In this document: one piece after another, positions 19,681 through 64,000 of the stretch
How the letters are laid out: each line of letters starts with the position of its first letter
How positions within the stretch are numbered: position 1 is the stretch's first letter
From: an uncultured Christensenellaceae bacterium
GTDB taxonomy: Bacteria > Bacillota > Clostridia > Christensenellales > UBA3700
Length of the DNA stretch: 64,000 nucleotides
Direction: 5' to 3'
Assembly: GCA_944381365.1 (NCBI GenBank)
Contig: CALWKW010000002.1
Span: 385,952 to 449,951, forward strand
Notes under the pieces: generated by a model
The model's database searches: none
Told to the model about the DNA's origin: nothing
What the model saw: only the letters and a program-made list of their open reading frames with translations
Translations under genes and position numbers: made by a program

Positions 19681-19690
19681 AATACTCACC

Positions 19691-20344: not shown

Positions 20345-21329
20345 TTGTCTTTCCCATCAAATATACTATCGCTTTGTCAAGTGCGTTTTCGGGCGAAATC
20401 TTTCCGCTTTTGAAATCGTACTCCAAGTCATAGAGATAGTAAAGTGTATTTTTTATTTTGTAAAGATAGCCGGGGATTTTTCGTTTTGATTCCTCTATCC
20501 TCTTTTTTATGTTGTAGATTGCACCGCTTTTTATGTTGAGACTTTTTGCAAGAAAATCTGTTTCTCCGCTGTTTGTCATAAGTGCAAAAATGTTTTTGTA
20601 GCTTGCCGTGATAAGTGCCAAGAGTCCCGAGGGCTTTTCGCCTCTTGCTCGCATAACGCTCATTATTCCCATGGCTTTGTCATAGTTTTTGTCCTGCATG
20701 GATGATATAAACTCATAGACTTTTGTCTCTATGTCGGCAGGTACGAGTTCTTCCACGATATGAGTATCTGCCACTATTTCCTGACCGCAATACAAGATTA
20801 TCTTGTCAAGCTCGTTGTTTATCTTGGCAAAATCCCTGTTGCAGGCATTGGCAATGGCTGATGCGGTCTTTTCGTCATACTTGACTTTGTAGTACTTGAG
20901 CAAGGTCTGGATATAGTTTACACACATAGGCAAATCCATAGTATTGCAATCCACTACTACTATGTATGAATCTATTACTTTGGCTATCGAAGGGCTGTTG
21001 ACCAAAACAAGAATGTTGTCTGAAGATTTGTCATTGATATAATCCAGCCATTTTTCAGCGTCATCCACACTGAGTTTTGCCGTCACATCTCTCACTATTA
21101 CTATTCTTTTGTCGCCAAACATGCTTCCGTAGGCAAGCGATGCGATAATCTCGTCAGTGGTGGTTTCGTTTCCTTCAAAAGTCTGTATGCAAAACTCTCT
21201 TCCTTCTTCAGGTATAAGCTCAGAAAACTTTTCCAATGAATACAAGATAAGCCCCTCATCGTTGCCGATAAGAGAATAAATATCCGCTATATTATCCTTG
21301 AATGAGCGTTTGAGCTGAAGTGCCTGCAT
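20334..21329 (-). CDS. holA: DNA polymerase III delta subunit
   Basis: 331 aa, directly downstream of comEC (the conserved Firmicutes comEC-holA pair). Delta-like N-terminal pattern IYSLIGNDEGLI. Confidence 0.65.
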   Translation of the reverse strand: MQALQLKRSFKDNIADIYSLIGNDEGLILYSLEKFSELIPEEGREFCIQTFEGNETTTDEIIASLAYGSMFGDKRIVIVRDVTAKLSVDDAEKWLDYINDKSSDNILVLVNSPSIAKVIDSYIVVVDCNTMDLPMCVNYIQTLLKYYKVKYDEKTASAIANACNRDFAKINNELDKIILYCGQEIVADTHIVEELVPADIETKVYEFISSMQDKNYDKAMGIMSVMRARGEKPSGLLALITASYKNIFALMTNSGETDFLAKSLNIKSGAIYNIKKRIEESKRKIPGYLYKIKNTLYYLYDLEYDFKSGKISPENALDKAIVYLMGKTNAV

Positions 21330-21342
21330 ACCTTCTCCGTGA

Positions 21343-23472
21343 TTATGATGCTTTTATTTTAGCATCTTTTATCTTAATTGTAAATGTTGATGATATATAA
21401 TTTTGCAGTGAATTTACAAATCCTTCTTCGCACACGATATACTTGTCTTTTTCTCCCGCTCCTGCCAAATCGTAGCTCACAAGAATATCATATTCGTTGT
21501 CTTTGTTGACATAACCGTCTGCCAGCACCTTGATTTTTGTTTCGCCTATTATTATTTCCAAAGTGCCTCTATTGTAAAAGCCAATCATAAAATCCGTGTC
21601 AAAAAGCAAAGTGTTTACCTTGTAGCCGATATTGAGATAATCGTTTTCTGAAAAGCTGTAAAGCTCAGAGCAATTCGACTTATACATTATCTCTTTCAAT
21701 ATCTCTTCTTCGCAAGTATCCACCACGACTACGCCGTCAATCTTTGTGATATGATATTCTCTTATCTTTTCTTGAGTAATATCGGGTGCGTCATAGCCCG
21801 CTTGTCCGTTAATAATCAGATATGTACCGTTTTTTGTATCATCGACAATGATTATCTGACATTCGCTTGCGTCTTCAAATCCATATACAAAAGTAGTATC
21901 TGCCGTCTTTATGTTGAGGTTTGCGATTATGCCTATACAAAACGCCGCAAGCAATACTCCCGAGGTAATCTGCTTTGCCTTTTTGGGTATCATAATGTAT
22001 TTTGACAAAACAAGCATTATCAAAATGTTTATTGCTATAAAGACTTTATTCAATTTGAAGTTTATCATAAGGAAATTCCACTTGCTGATTCCCTTGACGA
22101 TTTCCACAAGCAATGTAAATATCCACCCCATAGCCGTGAGCAAAAATCCCATAAAAGGCAGTATAGCCACCAAAAAAGCAACGATAAGATATACGGGGAA
22201 TATTATCGAAAGCACAGGCACGACAATGAGATTTGCCACTACAAACAACATCGATTGTCCGCCGAAATATACAAGCATGACGGGAAGCAAAGCTATGTTT
22301 GCCGAAAATGTAGCACTCAAAGGACTTATCAACTTTGACGGACATCTAAGCTTTTTGAGACACCTTGCTATCGGCTTTGAGAGCGTAATAAGTCCCAAGA
22401 CCGCCAAAAAGCTCATCAAAAATCCTAAGTCAAACAAATACATAGGATTCACTACAAGAAGTATGACGGCCGCCAAAGACAGATTTGTCAAAGCATCGCT
22501 TCGCATCATAAATATTCTGCTTGCCAAAAATACAAGCACCATAATTGTCGCCCTTATTGTCGATGGCGAGAATTCGCACATCGCACAAAAAGATATGAGA
22601 ACTGCTCCCACTACCAAAAAGTTTGCGAGACTGTTTTTTATCTTGAATTTTTTGAGCAAATACAACACCGCTCCCGCTATCATACCGATATGAAGACCTG
22701 ATACCGCAAATATATGTGCCGTGCCCGTGTATGAAAAAGCGTCAATGGTTTCATCATCCAATCCCGATTTGTCGCCAAAGGTCATTGCATACAAAAAGCC
22801 TGCCGTATCAGATTTTATGTTGTTATAAAGCACGCTTTTTATTCTGAGCTTTATTTTGTCGGTTATGGTCGCATCGTTTCCTTTGTTTTCAAAGACAAAA
22901 TCGTCTTTTGTGCTGTCCCAATCGGCTTTTATATAATAATAAATGCCGTCCGTATAATCCGCCACAGAATAGCTATCGTTTGCGTCCACCTTCAAAGGAC
23001 TCACATCTCCCTTGAATTTTATTCTGTCGCCTATTTTGTATCCTTCTAGCAAGCTGCCATCCAATATGACTGTCTGTGCCTTTCCCTTATACTCAACTCC
23101 CGCAAAAGTTAGGTCCTCGAGATATATCTCCACTTTTCCTTCGGCATTGACAAAGCCACTTTTATCGCTTTCGCTGATTATGTCTATTCTGCCTGTTATC
23201 TCCACATTTTTGAGATAAATCTGTCTGTCTTCGATTGCCGCAAAATTCAGTTCTGTCACGCCAAGCATAATGCAAAAAGCAAGAAGCACCGCTATGAGTT
23301 TGCCTCTTGCCTTTTTCATTTGTCTTACGAATACCGAACACAACAAAAGTATCAATGCTCCCGCAAGCACAGCAAGAATGAGTGCCGTATCGAGATATAC
23401 CCCACAACATACAGCCAAAATAATACCCATCAAAATCAATGGTATCAATCTGAAATTAAAAATTCTTTGCAT
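21343..23472 (-). CDS. comEC: ComEC/Rec2 DNA internalisation channel protein
   Basis: 709 aa with an N-terminal OB-like region. Central competence domain (YTGTAHIFAVSGLHIGMI) with many TM helices. The C-terminal beta-lactamase-like region lacks an HxHxDH motif. Confidence 0.8.
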   Translation of the reverse strand: MQRIFNFRLIPLILMGIILAVCCGVYLDTALILAVLAGALILLLCSVFVRQMKKARGKLIAVLLAFCIMLGVTELNFAAIEDRQIYLKNVEITGRIDIISESDKSGFVNAEGKVEIYLEDLTFAGVEYKGKAQTVILDGSLLEGYKIGDRIKFKGDVSPLKVDANDSYSVADYTDGIYYYIKADWDSTKDDFVFENKGNDATITDKIKLRIKSVLYNNIKSDTAGFLYAMTFGDKSGLDDETIDAFSYTGTAHIFAVSGLHIGMIAGAVLYLLKKFKIKNSLANFLVVGAVLISFCAMCEFSPSTIRATIMVLVFLASRIFMMRSDALTNLSLAAVILLVVNPMYLFDLGFLMSFLAVLGLITLSKPIARCLKKLRCPSKLISPLSATFSANIALLPVMLVYFGGQSMLFVVANLIVVPVLSIIFPVYLIVAFLVAILPFMGFLLTAMGWIFTLLVEIVKGISKWNFLMINFKLNKVFIAINILIMLVLSKYIMIPKKAKQITSGVLLAAFCIGIIANLNIKTADTTFVYGFEDASECQIIIVDDTKNGTYLIINGQAGYDAPDITQEKIREYHITKIDGVVVVDTCEEEILKEIMYKSNCSELYSFSENDYLNIGYKVNTLLFDTDFMIGFYNRGTLEIIIGETKIKVLADGYVNKDNEYDILVSYDLAGAGEKDKYIVCEEGFVNSLQNYISSTFTIKIKDAKIKAS

Positions 23473-41128: not shown

Positions 41129-42856
41129 TTATATCTTCCATTCACTGGATTTTGATTGAAGCTCTTTCATTTTATTATATGCTCTGCTATTTGTTTCAAG
41201 TTCTTTCGGCGAGCCCTGTGCCTCAACAACTCCGTCTTTAATCATCACTAATTTATCTGCTTTTGCCACAGTTCGCATTCTGTGAGCTATTATCAGCACC
41301 GTTTTATTTTTTACAAGAGTGGAAATAGCTTTCTGAATTTCGGTTTCGTTTTCCACATCGAGGCTGGCAGTTGCTTCGTCCAACAGAACAATCGGTGCGT
41401 CTTTAAGCAAAGCTCTTGCAATAGATATTCTCTGTCTTTCGCCTCCCGACAACATACTGCCGTTTTCTCCGATTACGGAATCGTAACCATTGGGCAATTT
41501 ATTGACAAATTCATCACACCTTGCCGCTTTTGCCGCTCGTATAACTTCTTCGTCGCTAGCGTCTTTTTTACCTATTCGAATATTTTCCTTTATCGTATTG
41601 TTGAATAGCGTAACATCCTGAAATACTATAGAATATTTATTCATAAGCGTTTCGGGATCAACCTCCGAAATATCTTCTCCGCCTACGGATATTTTTCCGC
41701 CTTGAATATCCCAAAATCTTGCTGCCAGTTTTGCAATAGTGGATTTTCCGCCGCCGCTAGGACCTATTAAAGCAGTTATTTCACCTTGTTTTGCCACAAA
41801 AGATACACCGTTCAACACCTGTTCATCTTGATTATAAGCAAATTTTACATCATTGAATTCTATATCATAATTCTTTGGTTCAAAAACTTTCTTACCGTCC
41901 TGTATAGGCGACTGGTATATTTCTTTCATTCTGCCGATATTGATTCTGCAAGATATTACTGCCGCCAAATTCGTAAGCGCACTATTCATAGGATCGTATA
42001 CTCTCGACACTACCAACAAAAACATAAAGAAAGTCATCAGCGTCAACTTGTTGTCAGACAATAGAAGTCCGCCAGCCAAAGCAGTTGTTGCTATCCCAAA
42101 CTTTAGGACTAATTGTGCACTTACTACAAAAATAGCCGTCATATATTCGCTTGTAATATGTCTTTTTTCCACACAATTAATTTTCTTTTTAAGTCCTTCC
42201 AAATATTTATCCTCTGCATTACACGACTTAAGATCTCTGATACTTTCAAGACATTCTTGAATGCCGTCTGCCAAAGCCAAGTCAGCATTGTGCTTTTTAC
42301 GGTTGAATATATTCTGAACCTTTCCGGACGAGGCTACGATAATTATGGCAACAGGCAATACCCACATAGACGCAAGAGCCATTTGCCAATTGTATATAAA
42401 CAACATAACGGCAATTAAAGTCGTGCTGATAAATGAGGCAACTAATTCGGGATAAAAGTGCGAAAAACTAGTTTCTATAAAAGCACAATCGCCCATAATA
42501 GTAGTAGTCAAATCCGATAAATCTTTTTTACCGAAGTAAGACAACGGCAGTTTTCTCATTCTCTCCGCAAGCGATATGCGACGGTTTGCACTTTCTTTGT
42601 ATGTAGTAAGATAATTGCAATTATACTGTATATAATTTGTAAGATACATAACAATCAAAATACCCAGACTGCACAATATGTAGAACAAATAATTGTAATT
42701 GCTTTTTCCGCTTACAAATGTATCGACAAGAATATACAGCAATGACACGGGAAACATTTTGACCAAATTTACGACAGTACCTGCAACACAAGCTTTTATA
42801 TAATCGACTGCCCCTTGACGGGATAGTGCATATTTTTTCATTAATGCATTAACCAT
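41129..42856 (-). CDS. ABC exporter-fold half transporter (TMD-NBD)
   Basis: 575 aa. Motifs GPSGGGKST, LSGGERQR and VLLDEATASLD. Confidence 0.9.
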   Translation of the reverse strand: MVNALMKKYALSRQGAVDYIKACVAGTVVNLVKMFPVSLLYILVDTFVSGKSNYNYLFYILCSLGILIVMYLTNYIQYNCNYLTTYKESANRRISLAERMRKLPLSYFGKKDLSDLTTTIMGDCAFIETSFSHFYPELVASFISTTLIAVMLFIYNWQMALASMWVLPVAIIIVASSGKVQNIFNRKKHNADLALADGIQECLESIRDLKSCNAEDKYLEGLKKKINCVEKRHITSEYMTAIFVVSAQLVLKFGIATTALAGGLLLSDNKLTLMTFFMFLLVVSRVYDPMNSALTNLAAVISCRINIGRMKEIYQSPIQDGKKVFEPKNYDIEFNDVKFAYNQDEQVLNGVSFVAKQGEITALIGPSGGGKSTIAKLAARFWDIQGGKISVGGEDISEVDPETLMNKYSIVFQDVTLFNNTIKENIRIGKKDASDEEVIRAAKAARCDEFVNKLPNGYDSVIGENGSMLSGGERQRISIARALLKDAPIVLLDEATASLDVENETEIQKAISTLVKNKTVLIIAHRMRTVAKADKLVMIKDGVVEAQGSPKELETNSRAYNKMKELQSKSSEWKI

Positions 42857-44636
42857 TTTGCTCCTCCTTTGTCACATTCCATTCTACTGAAGTGATATAA
42901 TCTTTCCACATCTTTGAATAAACGCCGCCCTCTTTAACTAAATCTTTGTGTGTACCGCTTTCAACGACTTTGCCTTCAGAAAGCACAAATATATTATCGA
43001 CATCGACAATTGTGGATAATCTGTGGGCAATCATAAGCACAGTTTTCCCTTTTGTCAAAAACTTGAGAGCGTGTTGTACCATATGCTCGTTTTCAGGATC
43101 GGCAAAGGCAGTAGCTTCATCCAGAACCACTATAGGAGCATTTTTTAATATCGCTCTTGCGATAGCTATTCTCTGGCACTCGCCTCCGGATAAATATACA
43201 CCGTTTTTTCCTATAACCGTATCCATTCCCTCCGGTAATTTTGCAAGAATATCATCGCATTGAGCATAGTGCAAGGCATCTCGCACCTCTTCCCTCGATG
43301 CTTTGGGATTTGCAAGTCGTACATTTTCCAAAATCGATGTTTTTAACAATTTGCTATCTTGAAATACATATGATACATAATCGGAAAGTTCGATTTTGCT
43401 TATATCCTTAACATTTACTCCGCCTATAAGTATTTCGCCGCTCTTAACGTCCCAAAATCTAGACACTAAACCTGCCAACGTTGTTTTTCCGCTGCCGCTT
43501 TCTCCTACCAATGCTACTTTCTGTCCCGCCTCTATCGATATGTCGATACCGTCCAAAGCATTAATATCTGAATCGGGATATGAAAAGCTTACGTTTTTGA
43601 TTTCTATACTGTTATTCACAGGCTTTACGCTTTTATCCGGCTCGACCAATTGATTTACATTCATAATACGATCTATCCTATTTAGCGCATCCTTTACTAT
43701 CATATTGTTTTCGCTCATATACATGATTCTGGTGATAGTAAGTACCAAAAGAGGCGAAAATATTATATAAAATACCAAGTCAGTAATAAATGATTTATCA
43801 GCAGGGGCTCTGCCTACAATAAGCAAACTTACAGCAATCAAAAATACAAAAACTGAATCAATCAGCAATGTAAAAAACATCATAGGCTGTCGCAATTGTT
43901 TGGTATATTCAACCACCCACTTATGATAGCTGTCAATACTCGCTTTGAATTTTGCAAAAGAAAACACTGTCTGTCCGAAAGTCTTTACGACAGGTACGCC
44001 TCTTATATACTCTACTGCTTCGTTGTTCATATCCATAAGGGCATCGTTGTATTGTTTCATTTTTTCCTGCATTCTCTTGCCTGTCATTTTGGACATAATC
44101 AAAAAAGCACAAATTACCGGAGCAAGACAAGCAAGCCCGAGTCTCCAATCAAATACGAATAATAATACTATTATTGCCAAAGGAGTAACAATAGCCCCTA
44201 TCAAATCGGGAAGATTGTGTGCTAAGTATGTTTCTGTTGCAGAACTCGATTCGCTGATAGTTTTTCTAATCTTTCCGCTACCTATCAAATCAAATGCTCC
44301 TACAGGCAACTTTACCACATGTTCCAAAGTGCTTTTTCTTATGTTTGCCGCTACCCTGAAAGCCGATATATGCGAACACATCAATGAACCGACATAAACT
44401 ATAATTGAAAGAACGGCAAACAATACAGCCATCCAGCCGTAATAGGCTATATTGCTAGCTTTATCGAATTCAGGGGCGACAGCCAACACATCTCTTATCA
44501 TATACCAAATATATACGAAAGGCATAAGAGCAAGTACCGCACTAATTGCTGAAAGAATAAGCGAGGTATATGTTAGATATTTACGATTGCCCGCATATTC
44601 CATTAAACGTCCCAAAGGTTTATCTTTTTTTTGCAT
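42849..44636 (-). CDS. ABC exporter-fold half transporter (TMD-NBD)
   Basis: I place the start at MQKKDKPLG (AAGGAGG RBS, ATG at 44636). Motifs GESGSGKTT, LSGGECQR and VVLDEATAFAD. Confidence 0.9.
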   Translation of the reverse strand: MQKKDKPLGRLMEYAGNRKYLTYTSLILSAISAVLALMPFVYIWYMIRDVLAVAPEFDKASNIAYYGWMAVLFAVLSIIVYVGSLMCSHISAFRVAANIRKSTLEHVVKLPVGAFDLIGSGKIRKTISESSSATETYLAHNLPDLIGAIVTPLAIIVLLFVFDWRLGLACLAPVICAFLIMSKMTGKRMQEKMKQYNDALMDMNNEAVEYIRGVPVVKTFGQTVFSFAKFKASIDSYHKWVVEYTKQLRQPMMFFTLLIDSVFVFLIAVSLLIVGRAPADKSFITDLVFYIIFSPLLVLTITRIMYMSENNMIVKDALNRIDRIMNVNQLVEPDKSVKPVNNSIEIKNVSFSYPDSDINALDGIDISIEAGQKVALVGESGSGKTTLAGLVSRFWDVKSGEILIGGVNVKDISKIELSDYVSYVFQDSKLLKTSILENVRLANPKASREEVRDALHYAQCDDILAKLPEGMDTVIGKNGVYLSGGECQRIAIARAILKNAPIVVLDEATAFADPENEHMVQHALKFLTKGKTVLMIAHRLSTIVDVDNIFVLSEGKVVESGTHKDLVKEGGVYSKMWKDYITSVEWNVTKEEQNG

Positions 44637-44693
44637 TCTTTTTACCTCCTTGATTTTATTATACAAAGAGATATTCAAAAACAAAAATTTTAA

Positions 44694-53872: not shown

Positions 53873-54232
53873 ATTGCCTCCTTTACCAAACGGGTAGTAT
53901 ATGGTATATAAAAATATGGCTCAAAATTTTCCTTAAAAAAACAATGCGTAAACACAAAAAACACACACTTATGGCAAAATTTTACTATATTTTGAGCATT
54001 TTGTCAAGTTTGACTTCAACACGCAGTGCTTTTATGAAAAACAAAAATTGATGATTTTGAAGCAATTTTGCATTATTTTGCAACTTATTTGAGATTTTAA
54101 AGCATCAATATTATTAGATTTTTGTCGAATATAATAAATACTGACAAATAAATTTTTACAAAAAATTTAATCTAATTTCACTCATATTGACTATTTTTGA
54201 ATGATATTTTATAATAAATTCAAGAGATAATT

Positions 54233-55054
54233 ATGACAATAAGAGAAATAATAGGCAAATTAAATCTTGACAAAAACCTTTCTGAGCCTGCTATAAAATG
54301 GATAGAAGGCAATAATATTTTGTGTCAAGAATACTCCCGTCAACTTTTAAAAAACAAATTGAACAAGATATCTAGACTTGACAATATAAAAAAACTTGCA
54401 ATAGTGCTTTATACCCTGCCTTTTACCTATAAGGCTTATCTAGAAAAAGGCATTGATGAGAATATCTTTTGGGACACGATGAGCGATATAAAAATATGGT
54501 GCAAAAACGATTTTGAAAGATTCAACACTTTAGGGCTTGAGAATATAAATTGGATAAAAAAACATCTTACCTTAAAAATATTCAGACTAAAGCGATTGCA
54601 ATTTGAATTCTCAAGATTTATGATTTTGCCTCATGCAAAATTCAAAGATATCCTAAAATGCCCTTTCAGGCTCGGCGAAAAGTGCATTACTTTACACATA
54701 CCCCAAGGCGAAAAACTAGACAACGAGCTTTGCAAACAATCTCTTTCTATGGCAAACGAATTTTTTGCAAAATACTATCCCGATTATAAATATCGTTGTT
54801 ATACCGTGATTACATGGCTTTTAAATCCCGATTTCAAAAGCGTACTCAATGAGGATAGCAATATCGTGAAGTTTGGAAAAATGTTTGACCTTCTCGGCTA
54901 TGTCCCCGACAGCGATATGAACGAAAGACGAGTGTTTGGCTATGACAAAGACAGAAAAAACTATAATCCTAAAAACGCACTGCAATTATACACACTCTCT
55001 CGCATACAAAACAAAAAACCGCTTTATTCCTACAACGGCTATCGTGCCAAATAA
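54233..55054 (+). CDS. hypothetical protein (possibly the N-acyltransferase-like DUF5596/GNAT-C family)
   Basis: 273-aa ORF. The assignment rests only on overall resemblance to proteins annotated as acyltransferase domain-containing. No catalytic motif identified. Confidence 0.3.
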   Translation: MTIREIIGKLNLDKNLSEPAIKWIEGNNILCQEYSRQLLKNKLNKISRLDNIKKLAIVLYTLPFTYKAYLEKGIDENIFWDTMSDIKIWCKNDFERFNTLGLENINWIKKHLTLKIFRLKRLQFEFSRFMILPHAKFKDILKCPFRLGEKCITLHIPQGEKLDNELCKQSLSMANEFFAKYYPDYKYRCYTVITWLLNPDFKSVLNEDSNIVKFGKMFDLLGYVPDSDMNERRVFGYDKDRKNYNPKNALQLYTLSRIQNKKPLYSYNGYRAK

Positions 55055-55071
55055 AATTTTCATTGACAATT

Positions 55072-55290
55072 ATGGAAAAACAAAGACTAAACAAATTTTG
55101 TGAAAGAATATCTGAATTACGCCTTGAAAAAGGCATGTCAAGACAAGAGCTTGCCGACAAATTGCATATATCGGTAAGACTTGTGGGCTATTGGGAAAAA
55201 GGCGAGAGAGAATGTTCTCTCGATATGCTGATAAAGATAGCTAATATATTGGATACTGACATAAATTATCTTATAGGCTTTTCTGATTAA
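55072..55290 (+). CDS. XRE-family HTH regulator (paralogue A)
   Basis: LRLEKGMSRQELADKLHISVRLVGYWEKGE HTH block. Start is either ATG at 55072 or TTG at 55063. Confidence 0.8.
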   Translation: MEKQRLNKFCERISELRLEKGMSRQELADKLHISVRLVGYWEKGERECSLDMLIKIANILDTDINYLIGFSD

Positions 55291-55307
55291 TAGATATTCA
55301 ATCAATG

Positions 55308-55338
55308 AAAAAGGCTTGCTGACTGCAAGCCTTTTTTG
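55308..55338. terminator. bidirectional terminator
   Basis: AAGGCTTGC-tgact-GCAAGCCTT, flanked by an A-run and a T-run. Confidence 0.75.
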
Positions 55339-55376
55339 TTTGTTGTTTAATTTTCTATTTCTAGCTTTAAGAATAA

Positions 55377-55446
55377 TATTGCATCTCTACTTAATCAAGC
55401 CCTTGGAAATTAGTGCAATCTCTACTTAGTTAAGCCGTTGGAGAAT
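55377..55446. repeat. two tandem ~34-nt direct repeats
   Basis: TGCATCTCTACTTAATCAAGCCCTTGGAAAT and TGCAATCTCTACTTAGTTAAGCCGTTGGAGAAT. The period is 34 nt and about 28 of 33 aligned positions are identical. Confidence 0.7.
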
Positions 55447-55454
55447 GGTGCGAT

Positions 55455-55536
55455 TTTGCGAATTTTCAGCGGTTGTCCCGAATCCTGAGTGTACTTATCG
55501 TACTCGACTGTGAGGGGCGTTCCTGAAATTCGCAAA
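55455..55536. other. 82-nt imperfect nested hairpin just past the helicase stop codon
   Basis: Outer arms TTTGCGAATTTTCAG / CTGAAATTCGCAAA with one bulge. Inner GTCCC/GGGGC helix. Apical GAGTGTAC...GTACTC helix. No flanking T-run on either strand. Confidence 0.5.
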
Positions 55537-55559
55537 GGCGTATCGTTATACAACGGCGA

Positions 55560-58500
55560 TTATGTCGAAAGCTTGCCGTCAACCGTCACCATCAACTGCC
55601 TATCATCTATCGCCATATCGATAGCATTGTCAATCCATTCTGCAATAGCCTTGGTCTTCTTGCCGTAAGCAAAGAGTGTGATTACTTCTTTGATTACTCC
55701 GTCTCTGTCAAGTCCTATATTGCTCTCGAGAGCACATTTGACGGCACATATAATTTCTTCGGGATATATCTTGTTGATATCTCTCTTGACTTTTGCATCA
55801 GAAGGTCTGAATGTATCCACAGGCTTGTCTACATAGAATACTTTGCCTGCGACTTCCTTCTTGAACGAATCAAATTCTGCCACATAATTTTGCAAGGTTG
55901 CGATAGCTTTCTTTGCACTGTTGGGAAGGTTGAACATATAAGTCAACTTGTCCATGAGATAATGATATTCGATAGGCGACTCTCTTTCGATAATAGCTCT
56001 TATCTTTTCTTTTATCTTTTCCTCATTAATTATATCGAGTACAAAGTCAGTACCTACACGCATCATAGGCTTGATAGGATAAGCCTTGTAAGGCACACGG
56101 TACTTGGCAATAGTTTCTCTGACAGCCTTCTTGCTGAGTACTTTCTTTTGAGTGAGCGTAGCGATATAATCCTTTATCTTCTGGATTTCTCTTCTAGGGT
56201 TGTTGAAGTAATTTACAGTCCACAGCTGATAGGTATTCCAGCCGAGTTTTCTCAAAATCTTGGTCTGCATCATTACTCTGTCTCTTACGCCCTTGAGCTT
56301 GCAAGAATTTTCGCTGTCTGCAAGAATAGCAAGGATATACTTGTTTTTGTTTTTGGGATCGACAACTGCGACATCGATTTTGAAATCGCTCACGCCGACA
56401 TTGTAATCGCAAAGTATTCCTCTGTCTTTGAGCTCCTTGCCGAGAAGTTCGCTGATGCCTGCACTTCTTCTGACAATATCCATATTGCTGATAGCAAGCA
56501 TTTCCTTGCCTCTTTCGGCATATTCGAGGAAGGCTTTCAATCCCTCTACACCCTTGCTGCTCGTACGGTTGAGATCAATCATATTGCCTGTGATACCGCT
56601 GAAGATAACCATTTCGTTTCTTGCTCTCGTTACGGCAACATTGAGTCGCTTATAACCGCCGTTCTGGTTGATAGGACCGAAGTTGAGGGAGAGTTTTCCG
56701 TTTTTGTCAGGGCCATAGCCCACACTGAAAAGAATGAGGTCTCTTTCATCACCCTGAACATTTTCGAGGTTCTTGACAAATATAGGCTCGTCTCTGTCAT
56801 AAGCATAGGCATCGAGATGATGTTCATGCAATTTTTTGGAAAGCTCGTTTTCGATATAGACTTGTTGTGCCATATTGAAAGTGACGATACCGATACTGTA
56901 CTTTCTTTCCTGAGGGTCTTTGAGTCTTCTGATTACTTCTTCTACGAGTTCATCGCCCTCTTTCTTGTTGTGTTTTGCACCGCCACGCTCATAGACACCG
57001 TCTACATACCTGAACGAAACTTTGCTGTTCATCTCGTTGGGTGAAGGGAATGTGAGCAATGTGTTGCCGTAATACATAGCATTAGAGAAAGCGATAAGAC
57101 TTTCATGCAACGAACGGTAGTGCCACAACAAGTGATTCTGAGGCATACCGAGAGCCAAGCAGTCATCGAGAATACTGTCAAGGTCTTCTACCTCATAATG
57201 CTCGTCATCTTTATAGTCTACATTAAAGAATGTGGTAGGAGGCAACTGCTGAGGATCGCCCACGACAATAACATTCTTACCTCTTGCGATACAGCCCACA
57301 GCCTTGCAAGTAGGAAGCTGAGATGCTTCGTCAAAGATAACAAGGTCAAACTTGTTTTCCATATCGATGTCCAAGAACTGCGTCACCGAAGTAGGGCTCA
57401 TCAACATACAAGGACAGCATGCCGAAAGTATGTTGGGGATTTTGGCAAAGAGGTTTCTCAAAGTAGTACCTTTCATGCCCGATTTTTCGGCACGCATAAG
57501 CACTACTCTTTCGAGATTGTGGTCGCCCTCTTCGTCAGGACGAGGTATTCTCGCAACAAGCTTTTCGTAAAGCTCGCCCTTTGTCCATCTTTCATAGTCT
57601 TCTGTAAGCTCCTTGAACTTGTTTGCCAATTCCTCGAGAGTAAGACCTGAGAATTGACAAAGCACATCGTCAAGCAACAATTCGCTTCTTACAAAGTTGA
57701 AATATACGCACTTTTTAAAACAACTCAATACATCGACAGCCGATATTTCGCCGTCATTGAGAGGCTCGAGAATAAAGTCGAGACCGCTTGCTTTACATTT
57801 TTCCACAATTTCCTGATATTTGCACCAGTTGGGAATAAAGTCTAAGTTTTTCTGTATATTGCTGAGGTATTCTATCTTTGTATTGATATCGTTGCCTCCG
57901 CTATAACCTCCCGTGCTGAATATCTTGCAGAATGCACCTTCTGCTTTTGCACAGCTTTCGTATGCGTATTGATAATACAGCATAAAGGTATTGGGACCGT
58001 ACTTGACGAGTCTTGAACAGCTGTCTTCGAATACTTCGTTGTTGAGCTCGGCATAGAGCTTTTGAGCATTCTCATAAAGCTGGGCAATCTCACTTGTGCA
58101 AGCTTTGATTTTTGCAGATTCGTTGGCAGGAATCTGAAGAATATTCGCAAGCTCTTCTTCTCTCTTCTTGAGAGTAGAACGGATTTGTTCGCACTTGGAA
58201 AGATATTCTACGAATGCCCATCTGTCTTTCTTGTCTATGCCTGCGGGGATAACTCTTTTTATTCTGCCGCTGATATTTCCGCTCTTCAAAGTAGCGATAA
58301 GCTCGCCAGAAGAAACGCCCTCGGGATAAGTGCCGTATTTTGCGGTGTACTCATTGAGCATTGTATCCACACGGCTTTCTGCCTCGAGATATGACTCTAC
58401 AAGACCTCTTGGAGATCTCGAAAGATTTTTGAAATAATTCTGAATATACTCAAGATGCAAAGCCTTGCATATTCTGTACAATGCCTTTAGTTTTGCAGTA

Positions 58501-61232
58501 GTCAAAGCTACCGTACGCATATTGAACAAAGGCATGAGCGTGCGTGCATACTGACGCAAATGCTTGAGCTCCATGAGATATATCTCGAGAATAGAACTTC
58601 CTTCTTCGCTCCATTTCTCGCTATAACTGAAACCTCCAATATGTCTGAAAGGCGATTTTTCGATATCGCCGCATTCCTTGGCACGCAAAGCAAGTTCGGT
58701 AAGTATATCTATATATTTGTTGAAAGTAGAGCCAACGAGTTTTTCATAGAAAATACTGTCTATACGCAAGCAATCGGGAGAATCCTGATTTTCAAAATAT
58801 CCCATAATACCCTGATACAAGGAAATACCGAGATATCTCTTGCGGTGCATGGCCTCGAGTTCTCTCTCGAGCTTGTCTATACAATCGTTGATATCCTGAA
58901 GCTTGTCGTCTTCGACTTGTTCTGAAGGCTTGTTGTCAGCAAGGGACAAGGTATTGACAATCTGACTCAATACGGTAGTCTTGTTTGTCTTGTTTGAATG
59001 CAATTCAAGGCAGAAATCGCCAAGACCAATGCTTTGCAATCTGTGATGAACGACAGAAAGTGCCGCCATTTTTTCTGCCACAAACAAAACTCTCTTGCCT
59101 CTTACGATATTGTTGGCAATAATATTTGTGATAGTCTGTGATTTTCCCGTTCCGGGAGGTCCATGCAAAACAAAGCTCTTGCTAAGACTGTCTTTTATGG
59201 CAGAATACTGCGATGAGTCTGCCGATATAGGCAAATACATTCTGTCTTCTGACTTGTATGCTTCATCGCTCGAGCAATCTGACAAATTGAATGCGTCCTG
59301 AGGAAGCTCGAGCTTGTTGTTTATAAGCGAATTGACAATAGGATGTTCCCTAAACTTATCCGACTTGTATTTTACATCATACCAAAGCTGATAATTGCCA
59401 AACGACAAAGTAGCTAAGAATACATTGGGCATTATTTCCCAACCCTTAAAGCCTACCGTTTCTTTTTTGATTCTGGCAATTACGGAAAGTATGTTTTGCT
59501 GAGAATCGAGCGATACCGTGGACAATCCTCTTATGTCAAGATTGAATTCCTGATACAAAAACTCAAGCAAAGTGCTGTTGAGTCTTACATCTTCGACATT
59601 GACATCGAGATTGAATGTGGGAGATGCCACGCCCTTTTTGCTGAGACTTACGGGGTACAAAAGCAAAGGTGCGTATTTTTCTTCTGCCGTCTCGTTTTCT
59701 TTCCACTTGAGAAAACCTACCGAAAGATACAATGTGCTTGTACCTGTTTCTTCTTGAATGGACTGCTCTTTTCTGAACAATCTCAACATTATGCTTTCGT
59801 GAGATTTTTGGTCATATACAGAGAGTATTCTCTTGTTTTTGTACTCATAAGCCACATAATCCACAAAAGGCTTTAAGAAAGAACTTCTCTCAAATCCGTC
59901 CGTAATCTTTTCAAGGCTGGTAGCTCCGTCCTTGGGTTTTGCATCGACAATAAAGGATTTGTTTTCGCTCATCGCAGCGACAAAATCTTCTAATGTAGGC
60001 ACGAGAAGTTTTACTGCCGAACGGGATACCTTGAAATTGAGAAGGGCATTTCTCATATCCATATCGAGCAATCTTCTTTCCCACTGCGTGACACGGCTTA
60101 TTTCCTTTTCGCCGCCTATCTCGCCGTTGTATTCTTTGAACTGCTTGGGAGCAAGCGAAGTGATATAATCCTTGCTCTGAACGAGGTCATATCCGTCCTT
60201 GCCGAGCACTCTCTCGGGCAAAGGATATATGTGCATTATTCTCGCTCTTTTTATGTCTACGATAAAATCTACTACGCAATCTTTTTTGATAGTATTGAAA
60301 GCATTCTTTTCTGCTTTTTCGAATGATACGCCGCTTACGGTATCAGCCATAGCGACCATAGTAAAATCATTGACGCCCTTTTCTGCTTTCTGAGCGATAA
60401 GCTCTGCGTCATCGCTGACAAGAAGCGGCAGACATTCATTGGTAGTAAATACACCCACATACCAATCTTCGCCTATATGAGCAATCACGGCATTCTGTCC
60501 GTTTGCCTCTACAAGAGACGCATACAACAAGGCAAGCTCGGTAGCCGTAGCCACTTTTCCTTCAAGTAAATCCTTGTGAGTCTGAATCATCTCGCTCTTG
60601 CCCTCTTGCGATTTGCAATACTCAAAACGCATATCGTTGAGGACGCTGAATATACCAGCAAAATAGTTGCGGACATTATTTTTGTTGGTATTTGCAGAAT
60701 ATCCGCTCTGCATTGTAAAATTCCACTTTTTGAGTTTTTCCTCGACAAGCGACATCAGATAATTTACCTGAGGCGTTCTCTTGACAAAAGTAGCCAAGCT
60801 TTCGGGGCTGTTTTCATAATTGCATTCGTTGAACGCACTTATTTGAACTTCACAGCTTTGCTTTGCCACTACCTCTTCGCCAAAAAGCACCTCAACGGAT
60901 ATAATACCCGTAAGAGGCTTGTCCACCGCAACCATAAACAAGGGGGACAACTTTGCCTGACAATCGAACTTGGCATTCATACGGCGAGGAAGCACCGCTT
61001 GCTCTATCTCGCACGGCAACATAAAATCAGGCTGAGAAGTAATTCTAACCTTGATATTTTCTTTGTCCTCGTTGCTTCTGTTTTTGACATAAAGTCTCTT
61101 GATAGGGCAAATGTCATTCTGGACCTGATAATAATTGACCACATTGGAGCATTCCAAAGTGATATCCACAGGACCTTCGGGTTTTACCTTTTCTTTGACT
61201 TCTTTTTCTTCCTGGATAATTTCTTCTGCCAT
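55560..61232 (-). CDS. giant SF1 (Upf1-like) helicase with C-terminal PD-(D/E)xK-like nuclease domain (DUF4011/AAA_11/AAA_12/DUF3320-type architecture)
   Basis: I place the start at MAEEIIQ (AAAGGAGAG RBS, ATG at 61232). Motifs: LLDMDMRNALLNF; Walker A HGPPGTGKSQT; VIFDEASQ; VGDPQQLPPT; VQGDERDLILFS; NVAVTRARNEM. Then FKIDVAVVDP...ILADSE. Confidence 0.85.
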   Translation of the reverse strand: MAEEIIQEEKEVKEKVKPEGPVDITLECSNVVNYYQVQNDICPIKRLYVKNRSNEDKENIKVRITSQPDFMLPCEIEQAVLPRRMNAKFDCQAKLSPLFMVAVDKPLTGIISVEVLFGEEVVAKQSCEVQISAFNECNYENSPESLATFVKRTPQVNYLMSLVEEKLKKWNFTMQSGYSANTNKNNVRNYFAGIFSVLNDMRFEYCKSQEGKSEMIQTHKDLLEGKVATATELALLYASLVEANGQNAVIAHIGEDWYVGVFTTNECLPLLVSDDAELIAQKAEKGVNDFTMVAMADTVSGVSFEKAEKNAFNTIKKDCVVDFIVDIKRARIMHIYPLPERVLGKDGYDLVQSKDYITSLAPKQFKEYNGEIGGEKEISRVTQWERRLLDMDMRNALLNFKVSRSAVKLLVPTLEDFVAAMSENKSFIVDAKPKDGATSLEKITDGFERSSFLKPFVDYVAYEYKNKRILSVYDQKSHESIMLRLFRKEQSIQEETGTSTLYLSVGFLKWKENETAEEKYAPLLLYPVSLSKKGVASPTFNLDVNVEDVRLNSTLLEFLYQEFNLDIRGLSTVSLDSQQNILSVIARIKKETVGFKGWEIMPNVFLATLSFGNYQLWYDVKYKSDKFREHPIVNSLINNKLELPQDAFNLSDCSSDEAYKSEDRMYLPISADSSQYSAIKDSLSKSFVLHGPPGTGKSQTITNIIANNIVRGKRVLFVAEKMAALSVVHHRLQSIGLGDFCLELHSNKTNKTTVLSQIVNTLSLADNKPSEQVEDDKLQDINDCIDKLERELEAMHRKRYLGISLYQGIMGYFENQDSPDCLRIDSIFYEKLVGSTFNKYIDILTELALRAKECGDIEKSPFRHIGGFSYSEKWSEEGSSILEIYLMELKHLRQYARTLMPLFNMRTVALTTAKLKALYRICKALHLEYIQNYFKNLSRSPRGLVESYLEAESRVDTMLNEYTAKYGTYPEGVSSGELIATLKSGNISGRIKRVIPAGIDKKDRWAFVEYLSKCEQIRSTLKKREEELANILQIPANESAKIKACTSEIAQLYENAQKLYAELNNEVFEDSCSRLVKYGPNTFMLYYQYAYESCAKAEGAFCKIFSTGGYSGGNDINTKIEYLSNIQKNLDFIPNWCKYQEIVEKCKASGLDFILEPLNDGEISAVDVLSCFKKCVYFNFVRSELLLDDVLCQFSGLTLEELANKFKELTEDYERWTKGELYEKLVARIPRPDEEGDHNLERVVLMRAEKSGMKGTTLRNLFAKIPNILSACCPCMLMSPTSVTQFLDIDMENKFDLVIFDEASQLPTCKAVGCIARGKNVIVVGDPQQLPPTTFFNVDYKDDEHYEVEDLDSILDDCLALGMPQNHLLWHYRSLHESLIAFSNAMYYGNTLLTFPSPNEMNSKVSFRYVDGVYERGGAKHNKKEGDELVEEVIRRLKDPQERKYSIGIVTFNMAQQVYIENELSKKLHEHHLDAYAYDRDEPIFVKNLENVQGDERDLILFSVGYGPDKNGKLSLNFGPINQNGGYKRLNVAVTRARNEMVIFSGITGNMIDLNRTSSKGVEGLKAFLEYAERGKEMLAISNMDIVRRSAGISELLGKELKDRGILCDYNVGVSDFKIDVAVVDPKNKNKYILAILADSENSCKLKGVRDRVMMQTKILRKLGWNTYQLWTVNYFNNPRREIQKIKDYIATLTQKKVLSKKAVRETIAKYRVPYKAYPIKPMMRVGTDFVLDIINEEKIKEKIRAIIERESPIEYHYLMDKLTYMFNLPNSAKKAIATLQNYVAEFDSFKKEVAGKVFYVDKPVDTFRPSDAKVKRDINKIYPEEIICAVKCALESNIGLDRDGVIKEVITLFAYGKKTKAIAEWIDNAIDMAIDDRQLMVTVDGKLST

Positions 61233-61396
61233 TTCTCTCCTTTCCTTTGTCAAACGATAGGTTTGCAATAATAATTTTGTCCGTTCAGAAAACTTATAAC
61301 GGGGTCTGAGTAATTTTTAAAAAATCTGCCGAATACTATCGGTAAAAAGGGCAAAACGCCCGTAAAAAATTTCCCCTATTCCATCTTCTGTTTTTT

Positions 61397-61425
61397 ATTA
61401 TACAATATAATCTGGCTATTTGCAA
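61397..61425 (-). promoter_or_regulatory. helicase gene promoter
   Basis: On the minus strand: TTGCAA, 17 nt, TATAAT, with a TG-extended -10 box. This predicts a leader of about 158 nt. Confidence 0.55.
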
Positions 61426-61843
61426 TACGCATTTTTTATTATATTTAAATTTTAATAGAAAGCAAAGTTTTATATTTGATTGAAAAAATTGTTAATTTGC
61501 GATAATGTGTCGGTTTAAAGCATTGATAAAATTTTTGTATTTGCACAAACTTTTTTCATGAAAAATTTTTTTGCGTGTCTTTAAAAAAACTTTATACGAC
61601 TATATCGATTTGTCTTTTTTTGATTTTACCTGCCTATATTTATTCCCTATCTAGGTATAGACTCAACCTTTACAAAAAATCACTTTGTCTTGTCAAGCCG
61701 ATTTAGCTGGATATATCATTACGACATTAGACCTTGCCGACAATACCACTATGAAAAATGTCATGTCTATATAAAAATCAAGACAATTATTTTGGCAATT
61801 ATCTTGTAAAATACGATTATTATTTTGATTTGCACAAACAAAA

Positions 61844-61870
61844 ATATCCGCACAAGATTTGTGCGGATAT
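61844..61870 (-). terminator. terminator of the ddh gene
   Basis: ATATCCGCACAA-gat-TTGTGCGGATAT followed by a T-run on the minus strand. Confidence 0.8.
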
Positions 61871-61887
61871 TGATAGTTTTTTAGATA

Positions 61888-62871
61888 TTAAAGCATTTTT
61901 GCTCTTAATTCTTCGCCGCTTAAAGGTGAGAGATAAGAAGGTGCGACATCGAGTACGGTAATACAGCCTGTCTTGCCTTCCTTGCTCATTCTGTATACGG
62001 CTCTTGCATAAGCCACGAGTACGGATGAAGTAAAAGCAGGGTTTGAATCGAGCTTCAAAGAATATTCGATGACATTGTTGTATTCATCGTGTTCGCCTGT
62101 CTGACCGCTGCGAATTACAAAACCGCCATGAGGAATACCGTTGTGTTTTTCTTTGAGTTCTTCCATAGAAATAAAGTTGACGGTAGTATCGTAATCGGCA
62201 AAATAATTGGGCATCTCCTTGATTTGCTTTTCGATAGATGCTTTGTCTGCTCCTTCTTCTACTACTACAAAACATTCTCTTGTGTGCTTTTGTCTTGTGG
62301 TAAGCTGAGGATTCTTTCCGCTTCTTACTGCCTCGAGAGCACTCTCCACAGGCACTGTGTATTGTCTTGCGTCAAGCACGCCTTTAATTCTTCTGATTGC
62401 GTCAGAGTGTCCCTGACTTACGCCCTTGCCCCAGAATGTATAAGTAGCACCGCCGGGCAATACGCTTTCTGCATAAACACGGTTTAAAGAGAACATACCG
62501 GGATCCCAGCCGCAGCTTATAAGTGCCAAAGTATTGTTTTGTTTTGCGGCATTGTCTACGTCTTGGAAATGCTGAGGAATGTTGGCATGAGTATCGAAGC
62601 TGTCGATTACATTAAAATATTTTGCTACTTCAGGAGTCTGCTTGGGCAAATCCGTAGCAGAACCGCCGCACAAAATAAGCACATCTATATCATTTTTGTA
62701 ATTTGCGATATCTTCAGCTTTATATACATTTACGCCCTTGGTAATAGGGGTAATGCTGTCGGGATTTCTTCTTGTAAAAATAGCAACGAGTTGTGTATCG
62801 GCATTATGAGCGACTGCGTTTTCTACGCCTTTTCCCAAATTGCCGTATCCTAAAATACCTATTCTAATCAT
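61888..62871 (-). CDS. ddh: meso-diaminopimelate D-dehydrogenase
   Basis: 327 aa, collinear with Corynebacterium Ddh as I recall it. Blocks: IGILGYGNLGKGVE, GWDPGMFS, FWGKGVSQGHSDA, PHGGFVI and LDSNPAFT. Confidence 0.9.
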   Translation of the reverse strand: MIRIGILGYGNLGKGVENAVAHNADTQLVAIFTRRNPDSITPITKGVNVYKAEDIANYKNDIDVLILCGGSATDLPKQTPEVAKYFNVIDSFDTHANIPQHFQDVDNAAKQNNTLALISCGWDPGMFSLNRVYAESVLPGGATYTFWGKGVSQGHSDAIRRIKGVLDARQYTVPVESALEAVRSGKNPQLTTRQKHTRECFVVVEEGADKASIEKQIKEMPNYFADYDTTVNFISMEELKEKHNGIPHGGFVIRSGQTGEHDEYNNVIEYSLKLDSNPAFTSSVLVAYARAVYRMSKEGKTGCITVLDVAPSYLSPLSGEELRAKML

Positions 62872-62903
62872 ATTCAGTACTCCTTTTATTCTGAATTTTC
62901 TCT

Positions 62904-62934
62904 ATTATATAACACTCATTGTTTGTTTGTCCAA
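62904..62934 (-). promoter_or_regulatory. ddh promoter
   Basis: On the minus strand: TTGGAC, 17 nt, TATATA (overlapping TATAAT), about 35 nt upstream of the AAAGGAG RBS. Confidence 0.45.
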
Positions 62935-63060
62935 AATTTTTTATAAAAAAATTATGTGAGTATTGAATTTTTTTATGGATAAAATAAATCGTGAATATTA
63001 AAAATACATAATCGTATTTTGCAAAATAATATACACCAATTACCCTATAAATCTATTACA

Positions 63061-63087
63061 AAAACAAAAAGCGGGAAAATCCCGCTT
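63061..63087 (-). terminator. rho-independent terminator upstream of the ddh promoter
   Basis: AAAGCGGGA-ttt-TCCCGCTTT followed by TTTTGTTTTTG on the minus strand. Confidence 0.7.
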
Positions 63088-63205
63088 TCTGCAAATTGTA
63101 CAAATCCGACAAATATTCTTTTGTTCCTCAAAGCCAAATCTCTGCCGCATAAAGAATATTGTCTATCCCTTTACTGATTATTCTCGTAGCCCCAAGGTGC
63201 TATCT
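63061..63205 (-). ncRNA. candidate ~145-nt small RNA (promoter-to-terminator unit with no credible ORF)
   Basis: Defined by the promoter at 63212-63240 and the terminator at 63061-63087. Contains an internal 10-bp hairpin AATATTCTTT/AAAGAATATT (63111-63160). No RBS-preceded ORF. Confidence 0.3.
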
Positions 63206-63231
63206 TGCTTATATTCTACTACCTTGGGGCT
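63186..63231. promoter_or_regulatory. 12-bp perfect inverted repeat (operator candidate for the adjacent XRE regulator)
   Basis: TAGCCCCAAGGT, 22 nt, ACCTTGGGGCTA. The right arm fills the spacer of the minus-strand promoter and the left arm lies at about +8 to +19. Confidence 0.5.
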
Positions 63232-63240
63232 AAAATGTCA
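63212..63240 (-). promoter_or_regulatory. near-consensus promoter divergent from XRE paralogue B
   Basis: On the minus strand: TTGACA, 17 nt, TAGAAT. Confidence 0.5.
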
Positions 63241-63273
63241 ACAAATACATATAATAACCTAAACAGGAGTTTT

Positions 63274-63483
63274 ATGAAAGTTATTGTAGCTCAAAGAATA
63301 AAAGAATTGATGCAGGAAAACGGACTCAACCAAGTTCAGCTTGCTGAAAAAATCGGGTTGAAACAAAATACTATAAGTGCATGGCTTTTAGGCAAAAAGG
63401 AGCCTTGCATCACAAGTCTTTGGGCATTGGCAGATTATTTCGATGTGGATATAGATTATCTTGTAGGTCGCAAAAACTATTGA
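63274..63483 (+). CDS. XRE-family HTH regulator (paralogue B)
   Basis: I place the start at MKVIVAQRIKEL (AGGAG RBS). HTH block NGLNQVQLAEKIGLKQNTISAWLLGKK. The C-terminal DVDIDYLVG matches DTDINYLIG of paralogue A. TATAAT box at 63250-63255. Confidence 0.85.
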   Translation: MKVIVAQRIKELMQENGLNQVQLAEKIGLKQNTISAWLLGKKEPCITSLWALADYFDVDIDYLVGRKNY

Positions 63484-63484
63484 C

Positions 63485-63518
63485 AAAAATCCCGCCTTTT
63501 GAGCGGGATTTTTTTTTG
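63485..63518. terminator. bidirectional terminator
   Basis: ATCCCGC-cttttga-GCGGGAT, flanked by an A-run and a run of 9 T. Confidence 0.8.
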
Positions 63519-63558
63519 ATAATGATTTTAATCTTTTTGATAAATTTTATCTTCTGAC

Positions 63559-64000
63559 TTATTCTGATTTTTTTGTTTTTGAATTTGTGCTTGTCTTCGA
63601 GCTTTTGCTTGAAGGGGAAGATTTTGAAGAGGTCTTAGAGTTTGAAGTCGTCTTCGAAGCAGACTTTTCGGCTGTCTTTTTGGAAGAAGCATTTATTCCT
63701 TCTTTTGTCGATTTTGTCGCTTTTTGACTATTAGCGGATTTTGAAGTGCTTGCCTCCTTCTCGCTCTTTTGACTCTTTAATACTTTTTCTTCTTTATCCT
63801 TAGTCGATTTAGGTTGGGAAGATTTTGCATTATCTACTGCTTTTGATTTTTTCGAGGTGCTTGAAGATGTTGACTTTTTAGTCTCTTTTTTAGTACTCTT
63901 TTTCTCCTTGATTTTCTCGTCTTTCGGCTCTACCAAGCTTTTGAATTCTTTTAATATATCCTCGTCATTTTCATCGTTTTGAAGCGTCATAAATCTGTTT
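63559..64000 (-). CDS. Lys/Ser-rich low-complexity protein or C-terminal tail (5' end may lie outside the window)
   Basis: The ORF is open to the window edge. The first in-window Met is at 63990. Composition is dominated by K, S and T (STSKKSKA, KTSSKSSPSSKSSKTSTNSKTKK). Confidence 0.4.
   Translation of the reverse strand, partial: NRFMTLQNDENDEDILKEFKSLVEPKDEKIKEKKSTKKETKKSTSSSTSKKSKAVDNAKSSQPKSTKDKEEKVLKSQKSEKEASTSKSANSQKATKSTKEGINASSKKTAEKSASKTTSNSKTSSKSSPSSKSSKTSTNSKTKKSE

Follow-up and report, generated by a model that had tools for sequence, protein, structure and literature searches.

A ProA-like helicase-nuclease with an apparently inactive transglutaminase-like domain in a lineage of gut Clostridia

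The window analysed here is a 64,000-nucleotide stretch of DNA from an uncultured Christensenellaceae bacterium (contig CALWKW010000002.1, positions 385,952 to 449,951), and it encodes on its minus strand a giant protein of 1890 amino acids (aa). To judge from its sequence, this protein is a single-polypeptide helicase-nuclease of the ProA / PDC-S37 / Hhe family, the MTES_1575 type. Both the architecture and the hypothesis that it serves in defence were already catalogued. What appears to be new is the sub-branch to which the window protein belongs, in which the transglutaminase-like domain seems to be dead. We give roughly even odds (about 0.5) to the reading that the protein is a ProA-type helicase-nuclease acting on foreign nucleic acid, that of phages or plasmids, with a Vsr-like domain as its effector and with an N-terminal sandwich and a pseudo-transglutaminase as a non-catalytic surface. 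That reading draws on the behaviour of Upf1-like helicases, on the family label and on the genomic context of relatives.

Results

Domain architecture and family placement

The protein consists, in order, of a β-sandwich, a transglutaminase-like domain, DUF4011, a split Upf1-like superfamily 1B (SF1B) helicase core, a Vsr-like nuclease fold and a DUF3320-type tail (Table 1). An initial annotation, made from the letters of the DNA, had recognized a DUF4011-like segment and a complete SF1B core, and both are borne out. Pfam finds DUF4011 over its full model, AAA_11 and AAA_12 (the latter at residues 1357-1544) score above their Pfam cut-offs, and helicase motifs I, Ia, II, III, V and VI are all intact. 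Every motif quoted in that annotation is present (GPPGTGKSQT at 691-700, FDEASQ at 1300-1305, GDPQQLPPT at 1325-1333, VQGDERD at 1492-1498 and NVAVTRAR at 1531-1538) and is invariant in 21 aligned homologues of 31-91% identity. The nearest solved structures by sequence are the Upf1-like helicases IGHMBP2, Sen1 and Upf1; a sequence search of the PDB returned nothing closer than such generic Upf1-like helicases. Walker A and motif Ia lie at residues 691-728 and motif II at 1300-1305, so that about 460 residues sit inside RecA1.

Three curated models recognize the protein. The NCBIfam model ProA (NF058533, an equivalog named 'anti-phage protein ProA') is collinear with residues 33-1856 in one stretch, over profile positions 1-1901 of 1903. 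ProA has the same domain order as the window protein, and its nuclease likewise lacks the Glu of the ExDG motif. Nevertheless, the two differ. ProA proper, the Bacteroidota-type proteins such as P0097 and P0101 that score about 2180 bits against the model, keeps the transglutaminase Cys and His, whereas the window protein has Ala230 and Asp256; the window protein is also some 50-120 aa shorter than ProA, gives a weak Pfam DUF3320 signal and has no defence neighbours.

The PADLOC model PDC-S37, a single-gene phage-defence candidate, matches residues 380-1881 with 968 bits (E 2.4e-291; model positions 9-1539 of 1550). This model begins at DUF4011 and leaves the N-terminal 380 aa of the window protein outside. 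PDC entries in PADLOC are candidates predicted from genomic association, not validated systems, and our literature search found nothing on PDC-S37.

Hhe (NF042953 / PDLC02194) unites DUF4011, an Upf1-like helicase and a Vsr-like nuclease in one protein, as the window protein does. The match to it is only partial, both in NCBIfam (residues 1114-1704, 657 bits against a cut-off of 2000) and in PADLOC (462 bits). Moreover, Hhe-like relatives keep the nuclease residues ExDG..YH, the helix Glu of FDSPFE and the transglutaminase Cys and His, whereas the window protein is without the Glu and His of ExDG..YH, the helix Glu and the transglutaminase pair. A review table lists Hhe among the defence genes credited to Gao et al. 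2020.

The architecture itself was described in 2013. The MTES_1575 archetype comprises a HEPN domain, a transglutaminase, an SF1 helicase, a Vsr-family restriction endonuclease (REase) and two winged helix-turn-helix (wHTH) domains that overlap DUF3320 (Anantharaman et al. 2013, PMC3710099). Transglutaminase, helicase, REase and the two wHTH domains are common to the archetype and the window protein. The archetype opens with a HEPN RNase domain followed by its transglutaminase; the window protein shows no HEPN in a Pfam scan, and its transglutaminase domain is apparently inactive. With this description, and with relatives named ProA, PDC-S37 and Hhe, the statement in the initial annotation that the architecture had no assigned function falls. 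Its domain reading and its suggestion of a defence role, on the other hand, agree with the curated libraries. Nor are Nhi and type II Mokosh, which it had offered as comparators, the closest ones. Like the window protein, they join an Upf1-like, COG1112-type helicase to a nuclease, but nuclease type and accessory domains differ; a PADLOC scan of the window protein gave no Nhi match, and MkoA and MkoC reached at most 97 bits, confined to the motifs of the helicase core. On these sequence comparisons, the window protein is not Hhe, Nhi or Mokosh.

A transglutaminase-like domain without its catalytic residues

The N-terminal residues, about 380 in number, had been left unassigned. They can now be read as an Ig-like β-sandwich and a transglutaminase-like domain. 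An AlphaFold model built from a 44-sequence alignment (predicted local distance difference test, pLDDT, 90) has a β-sandwich at residues 22-131 and then an α/β domain at 140-345. Given the whole N-terminal model, Foldseek returned the sandwich alone, with PDB matches to RhoGDI, PDE6D, CARDB and the N-terminal sandwich of factor XIII and protein 4.2 at E of about 1e-3.

For the second domain modelled by itself (residues 138-346, pLDDT 94.7) Foldseek found no statistically significant PDB neighbour, the best having E 0.01-0.1 and a template modelling (TM) score of 0.3-0.4. The list is nonetheless almost entirely of transglutaminase fold: PNGase, Rad4/XPC, 3kd4, menin, PeiP, 3isr and LapG. Rad4/XPC, which is a catalytically inactive transglutaminase fold in a DNA-recognition protein, and PNGase are among the top neighbours (E 0.03-0.4, TM 0.3-0.4, not significant); we treat this likeness as an analogy only, with no evidence for a common function. 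Relatives with an active transglutaminase give sub-threshold Pfam matches to DUF553, itself transglutaminase-like (6 of 11), and to Transglut_core (2 of 11), and in a profile of the region the Cys motif aligns to 3kd4. Structure list, sub-threshold matches and profile, together with the published assignment (PMC3710099), lead us to take residues 140-345 as a probable transglutaminase-like domain, the structural support being consistent but not significant.

The N-terminal module is widespread. A phmmer search of 1.84 billion cluster representatives found it in 747 clusters. Among the best 150 of these, about two thirds are proteins of 1.7-2.5 thousand residues with the module at or near the N-terminus, and the other third or so are shorter, possibly fragments.

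We classified transglutaminase status by alignment in 116 homologues and, separately, in the genes of 71 genome loci. The Cys motif GTCLDM and the His motif GHAFAG are kept in Hhe-like and ProA-proper proteins, including all 16 of the 16 ProA-proper clusters. Both residues are missing from every one of clusters P0001-P0094 (34-91% identity), whose hosts are uncultured gut Clostridia, Christensenellales-like by the names of the relatives. Metagenome-assembled genomes of this clade are numerous, and there are clusters that number 100-340 members. The same pattern of loss and retention is repeated in the alignment of genome loci. In a neighbour-joining tree, built with no bootstrap, the transglutaminase-dead group is monophyletic and falls into two sub-branches.

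Outside this clade, isolated and independent losses of Cys, His or both also occur in scattered lineages (L020, L028, L047 and L059), as do partial ones (L046 and L082); L059 is in addition without a conserved nuclease Asp.

Two kinds of neighbourhood

Genomic surroundings differ between the two parts of the family. Using PADLOC models at E ≤ 1e-10, we compared the neighbours of 11 same-clade loci with those of 11 loci that encode an active transglutaminase. Around the same-clade genes, 128 neighbour ORFs (open reading frames) match 15 models, mostly generic ones (UvrD-like to GajB, DEDDh), whereas 127 neighbour ORFs around the active-transglutaminase genes match 135 models. The strong matches beside the latter include a Type III REase (1.6e-291), PDC-S02 (6e-134), HEC-01A (1e-129) and retron-type reverse transcriptases (1e-105). 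The names mad3 and AriA are discounted in these neighbour sets because their matches in the window are generic P-loop ABC ATPases, which inflate defence counts; within the window itself we rejected PADLOC mad3, mad8 and AriA as ABC-transporter ATPases (8 ABC_tran ORFs, for example 41132-44684). The initial annotation had looked to enrichment near defence genes as a sign of a defence role: such an association is found for the active-transglutaminase relatives, and not for the window clade, which has housekeeping synteny instead.

Signs of mobility come from the wider family. Matches that span 80% or more of the query occur in twelve plasmid records, and resolvases lie near the P0101 locus. Phage genomes held no full-length copy, except for one unannotated 11-kb faecal contig. 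In one of the twelve plasmid records (L093, NZ_OY725931.1, B. finegoldii 'plasmid 29') a ProA-type gene abuts a gene of the reverse-transcriptase family; this 'plasmid' looks like a chromosomal fragment because it contains rpsA and glutamine synthetase III.

In the window clade the surroundings are of another kind. Relatives at 48-91% identity occupy varied sites, all of them among housekeeping genes: diaminopimelate dehydrogenase (DAPDH); a chromate transporter and rubrerythrin; GroES/EL, dCMP deaminase and ScpAB; MTHFR and MetH. In the deeper sub-branch (34-36% identity), the next gene in 8 loci is a comEC of the same orientation, no more than 65 bp away in 5 of them; 9 loci have holA, cdaA and aspartokinase further along. 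In six species (L006, L008, L009, L062, L091 and L092) the gene directly upstream, 100-900 bp away and of the same orientation, encodes a divergent UvrD-like helicase of about 800 aa. The window's own comEC-holA-cdaA-DUF1015-ask block (14.4-23.5 kb) shares the strand of the big gene and lies 32 kb downstream of it. From the neighbour contrast, the signs of mobility and the synteny, we conclude that the family at large behaves as defence cargo and the window clade as a vertically inherited chromosomal gene.

As a separate observation, the upstream UvrD-like helicase matches PADLOC GajB weakly and partially, and it may be a functional partner.

The nuclease fold and the C-terminal tail

The Vsr/DUF559-like block of the initial annotation holds as a fold, PF18741 being matched above its cut-off. 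Its catalytic residues are another matter, since only part of the set is conserved. In the homologue alignments D1620, D1639, D1651 and R1652 are invariant. Elsewhere in the site, degeneration looks stepwise. Hhe-like proteins have the helix Glu (FDSPFE), the Asp, ExDG and YH. In both ProA proper and the window clade, the Glu has given way to a hydrophobic residue and the His is no longer conserved. In the window protein ILADSEN stands where Hhe-like proteins have ECDGxxYH, and there is no FDSPFE-type Glu.

The tail had been described as about 300 aa of DUF3320 type. The type stands, and the length is closer to 200 aa. A profile of the clade's tails finds the DUF3320-bearing C-termini of both ProA and Hhe-like proteins by hmmsearch (Table 1), and Pfam DUF3320 itself is faint on the window tail (E 0.047). 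The assignment of this region as wHTH is taken from PMC3710099.

Table 1. Features of the giant gene and of the comEC block in the window. Residue numbers refer to the 1890-aa protein; a full stop under Strand marks a feature given for neither strand.
Feature	Residues	Position	Strand	Basis
Complete coding sequence, ProA-like helicase-nuclease, 1890 aa + stop	1-1890	55560..61232	-	ORF and translation, NCBIfam ProA, PADLOC PDC-S37
Ig-like β-sandwich (predicted)	22-131	60840..61169	-	AlphaFold model pLDDT 90, Foldseek
Transglutaminase-like domain, Cys to Ala230 and His to Asp256 (putative pseudo-enzyme)	140-345	60198..60815	-	Alignment with relatives, model pLDDT 94.7, Foldseek list
DUF4011	387-559	59556..60074	-	Pfam PF13195, E 5.1e-33, full model
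N-terminal portion of RecA1; contains Walker A (GPPGTGKS, 691-698) and motif Ia	672-797	58842..59219	-	Pfam AAA_11; PDB sequence match to IGHMBP2, residues 670-728
Large insertion between helicase motifs Ia and II	about 800-1260	57453..58835	-	No Pfam match; covered by ProA and PDC-S37 full-length models
Motifs II (DEASQ), III (GDPQQLPPT), V (VQGDERD) and VI (NVAVTRAR)	1283-1544	56601..57386	-	Pfam AAA_11 second stretch, Viral_helicase1, AAA_12; PDB Sen1, Upf1
Vsr-like MTES_1575 nuclease fold	1598-1689	56166..56441	-	Pfam PF18741, 64.1 bits against cut-off 38.2; alignments; PDB profile matches
C-terminal tail; homologue of the DUF3320 region (two winged helices) in ProA and Hhe-like proteins	1700-1890	55563..56135	-	Tail-profile hmmsearch, 63-90 bits
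Ribosome-binding site AAAGGAAAGGAGAG		61235..61248	-	Direct sequence reading
Promoter-like site TTGCAA-17-TATAAT, about 165 nt upstream of the ATG		61397..61425	-	Consensus scan, 10/12 matches; consensus match alone, no proof of function
16-bp hairpin, T-runs on both strands, probable shared terminator of the big gene and the convergent XRE gene		55304..55340	.	Terminator scan, inverted repeat I2
comEC		21346-23472	-	Window block 14383-23472
holA		20337-21329	-	Window block 14383-23472
cdaA		17335-18150	-	Window block 14383-23472
DUF1015		15973-17211	-	Window block 14383-23472
Aspartokinase (ask)		14383-15699	-	Window block 14383-23472

Gene model and flanking DNA

The giant gene is real, and the observation made in the initial annotation is confirmed with three small corrections. 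The minus-strand frame 55560-61232 is a single uninterrupted ORF of 1890 aa and a stop codon (55560-55562). Its start, the ATG at 61232, is preceded by AAAGGAAAGGAGAG; an alternative TTG start 12 codons upstream, which a mechanical ORF list prefers, has no ribosome-binding site.

The protein is probably expressed from its own promoter. A monocistronic gene with its own promoter had been claimed, and what speaks for it are consensus matches only: the promoter-like site (61425-61397), a predicted terminator behind the upstream gene (61871-61843, terminator scan) and the bidirectional hairpin beyond the stop codon (55304-55340). Folding of the 5' leader RNA is no better than that of shuffled sequences (z -0.5). 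An Rfam scan of 54000-64000 gave nothing above the gathering score, the leader-type matches being terminator hairpins.

Several small elements lie around the gene. At 61349-61361 the minus strand has a short GC hairpin accompanied by a T-run (GGGCGTTTTGCCC TTTTT); it falls within the presumed 5' leader, downstream of the promoter-like site and ahead of the ATG. In the AT-rich intergenic DNA upstream, a 17-nt motif, TTTGTATTTGCACAAAC / TTTTGATTTGCACAAAC, is found twice (61534-61550 and 61823-61839) and may be an operator. Two repeats lie in the 270-bp gap that immediately follows the stop codon: a tandem direct repeat of 35 nt (2 copies, 80% identical) at 55383-55452 and an inverted repeat of 32 nt (78% complementary) at 55434-55557.

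In the window the gene is flanked on one side by citrate synthase, GNAT-like and XRE genes and on the other by the DAPDH gene. Two XRE-family genes had been said to bracket it. One of them (55063-55290) does abut the big gene; the other (63205-63483) lies beyond the DAPDH gene, and is orthologous (78% DNA identity) to a helix-turn-helix gene (L001, 8491-9654) that separates DAPDH from the big gene in the relative of 91% identity. A 282-aa gene of that relative, unmatched in Pfam and PADLOC, is absent from the window. In the window, 63559-63990 on the minus strand is a 143-aa Lys/Ser-rich ORF of low complexity, likewise with no Pfam or PADLOC match.

Discussion

How might such a protein work? 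In the reading to which we give even odds, DUF4011 and the winged-helix modules would load the protein on nucleic acid, and it would then translocate 5' to 3' along a single strand at the expense of ATP, as Upf1-like helicases do. On meeting a foreign or aberrant substrate, such as the DNA of a phage or plasmid or a hybrid of RNA and DNA, it would cut or block it by way of the Vsr-like domain. The N-terminal sandwich and the pseudo-transglutaminase would serve as a surface for binding, sensing or docking and not as an enzyme. In the Clostridia lineage of the window, the gene would have become fixed and vertically inherited on the chromosome, and would no longer be island cargo.

A number of results weigh against this reading. 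The ProA score of the window protein, 1420.8 bits, falls narrowly short of the equivalog cut-off of 1500, and scores within its clade straddle that cut-off (1396 for P0065, 1421 for the window, 1471 for P0086 and 1607 for P0078). Our literature search found no primary description of ProA, so that 'anti-phage' is the label of a model alone. Three residues that Hhe-like proteins keep are missing from the window nuclease, namely the helix Glu, the ExDG Glu and the His; a search of its profile against the PDB gave RAP domains at E 7e-4 and the DUF559 protein 3hrl at E 0.016. Because these three residues are missing and the RAP match is at least as good as that to 3hrl, cleavage is unproven. Neither the window nor any of 17 other same-clade loci has a defence gene within 8-10 kb, and the comEC-holA-cdaA-ask synteny in eight or nine loci of the deeper sub-branch is the pattern of a core gene.

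The strongest alternative is domestication, which we consider a serious contender, though the less probable of the two. An ancestral ProA-type defence gene would have been fixed and would have lost its transglutaminase, and its product would now be a genome-maintenance enzyme acting on the cell's own nucleic acids, in R-loops, replication-transcription conflicts, repair or transforming DNA. The monophyly of the transglutaminase-dead clade and its conservation over the full length at 34-91% identity fit such a history. So do the comEC gene that follows directly in the deeper sub-branch and the holA and cdaA genes after it, the large UvrD-like helicase upstream in 6 loci, the few and mostly generic PADLOC matches among neighbours, and the window's own copy of the comEC-holA-cdaA-ask block. 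There is a precedent, too: P. aeruginosa has a DUF4011 gene in its core genome (PMC10250203). However, synteny speaks for vertical inheritance and not for function, and defence genes do occur in core genomes. Moreover, within the sub-branch of the window protein (48-91% identity) the site of the gene changes from species to species, and the nearest named relatives carry an anti-phage label.

A bolder form of the domestication idea would extend it to an order-level lineage of Clostridia. The transglutaminase would have been switched off once, in the ancestor; the gene would have settled upstream of comEC-holA-cdaA, often behind a UvrD-like helicase; and the protein would police the cell's own or incoming nucleic acids, not phages. 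We hold this fuller account to be doubtful, a shade more so than domestication as such.

Alternatively, the protein could be a translocase with a dead nuclease. The degenerate Vsr-like fold would then be a RAP-like binding module, and the protein would act by ATP-driven remodelling or displacement, or would sense for an unlinked effector. The residues missing from the nuclease favour this possibility, as does the fact that RAP domains, the best PDB profile match, likewise lack the Glu. In the alignment to 3hrl, its VEADG falls on the hydrophobic-x-D-G/S of the clade, the Glu position being hydrophobic in the window protein and in ProA proper alike. Three points make it unlikely: the Asp residues and R1652 described above are invariant over deep divergence; ProA proper, labelled anti-phage, is without the same Glu; and Vsr itself is not known to have a Glu at that position.

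Recent arrival as mobile-element cargo between housekeeping genes, which the AT-rich flanks, the XRE genes nearby and the local rearrangement relative to the 91%-identical relative might suggest, is very improbable and we reject it: no integrase, transposase, tRNA-type boundary, flanking direct repeats or att-like repeats were seen at the locus, the gene resembles the coding DNA around it in GC content (0.41-0.45) and shows no anomaly there, and the clade is inherited vertically.

At the level of the family, these results bring nothing new, as annotation pipelines already name the relatives ProA, PDC-S37 and Hhe. The useful result is a contrast within the family. On one side are proteins with an active transglutaminase and defence-island neighbours; on the other is a large branch from gut Clostridia with a dead transglutaminase and housekeeping synteny. 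This contrast warns against extending the 'anti-phage' label past the equivalog boundary. It also points to the transglutaminase domain as a likely switch or sensor in ProA-type proteins, and the dead and active branches offer a natural comparison for the role of that domain. If domestication is true, the branch would be a clear example of a defence protein that became a core gene, a bacterial immune effector recruited to housekeeping.

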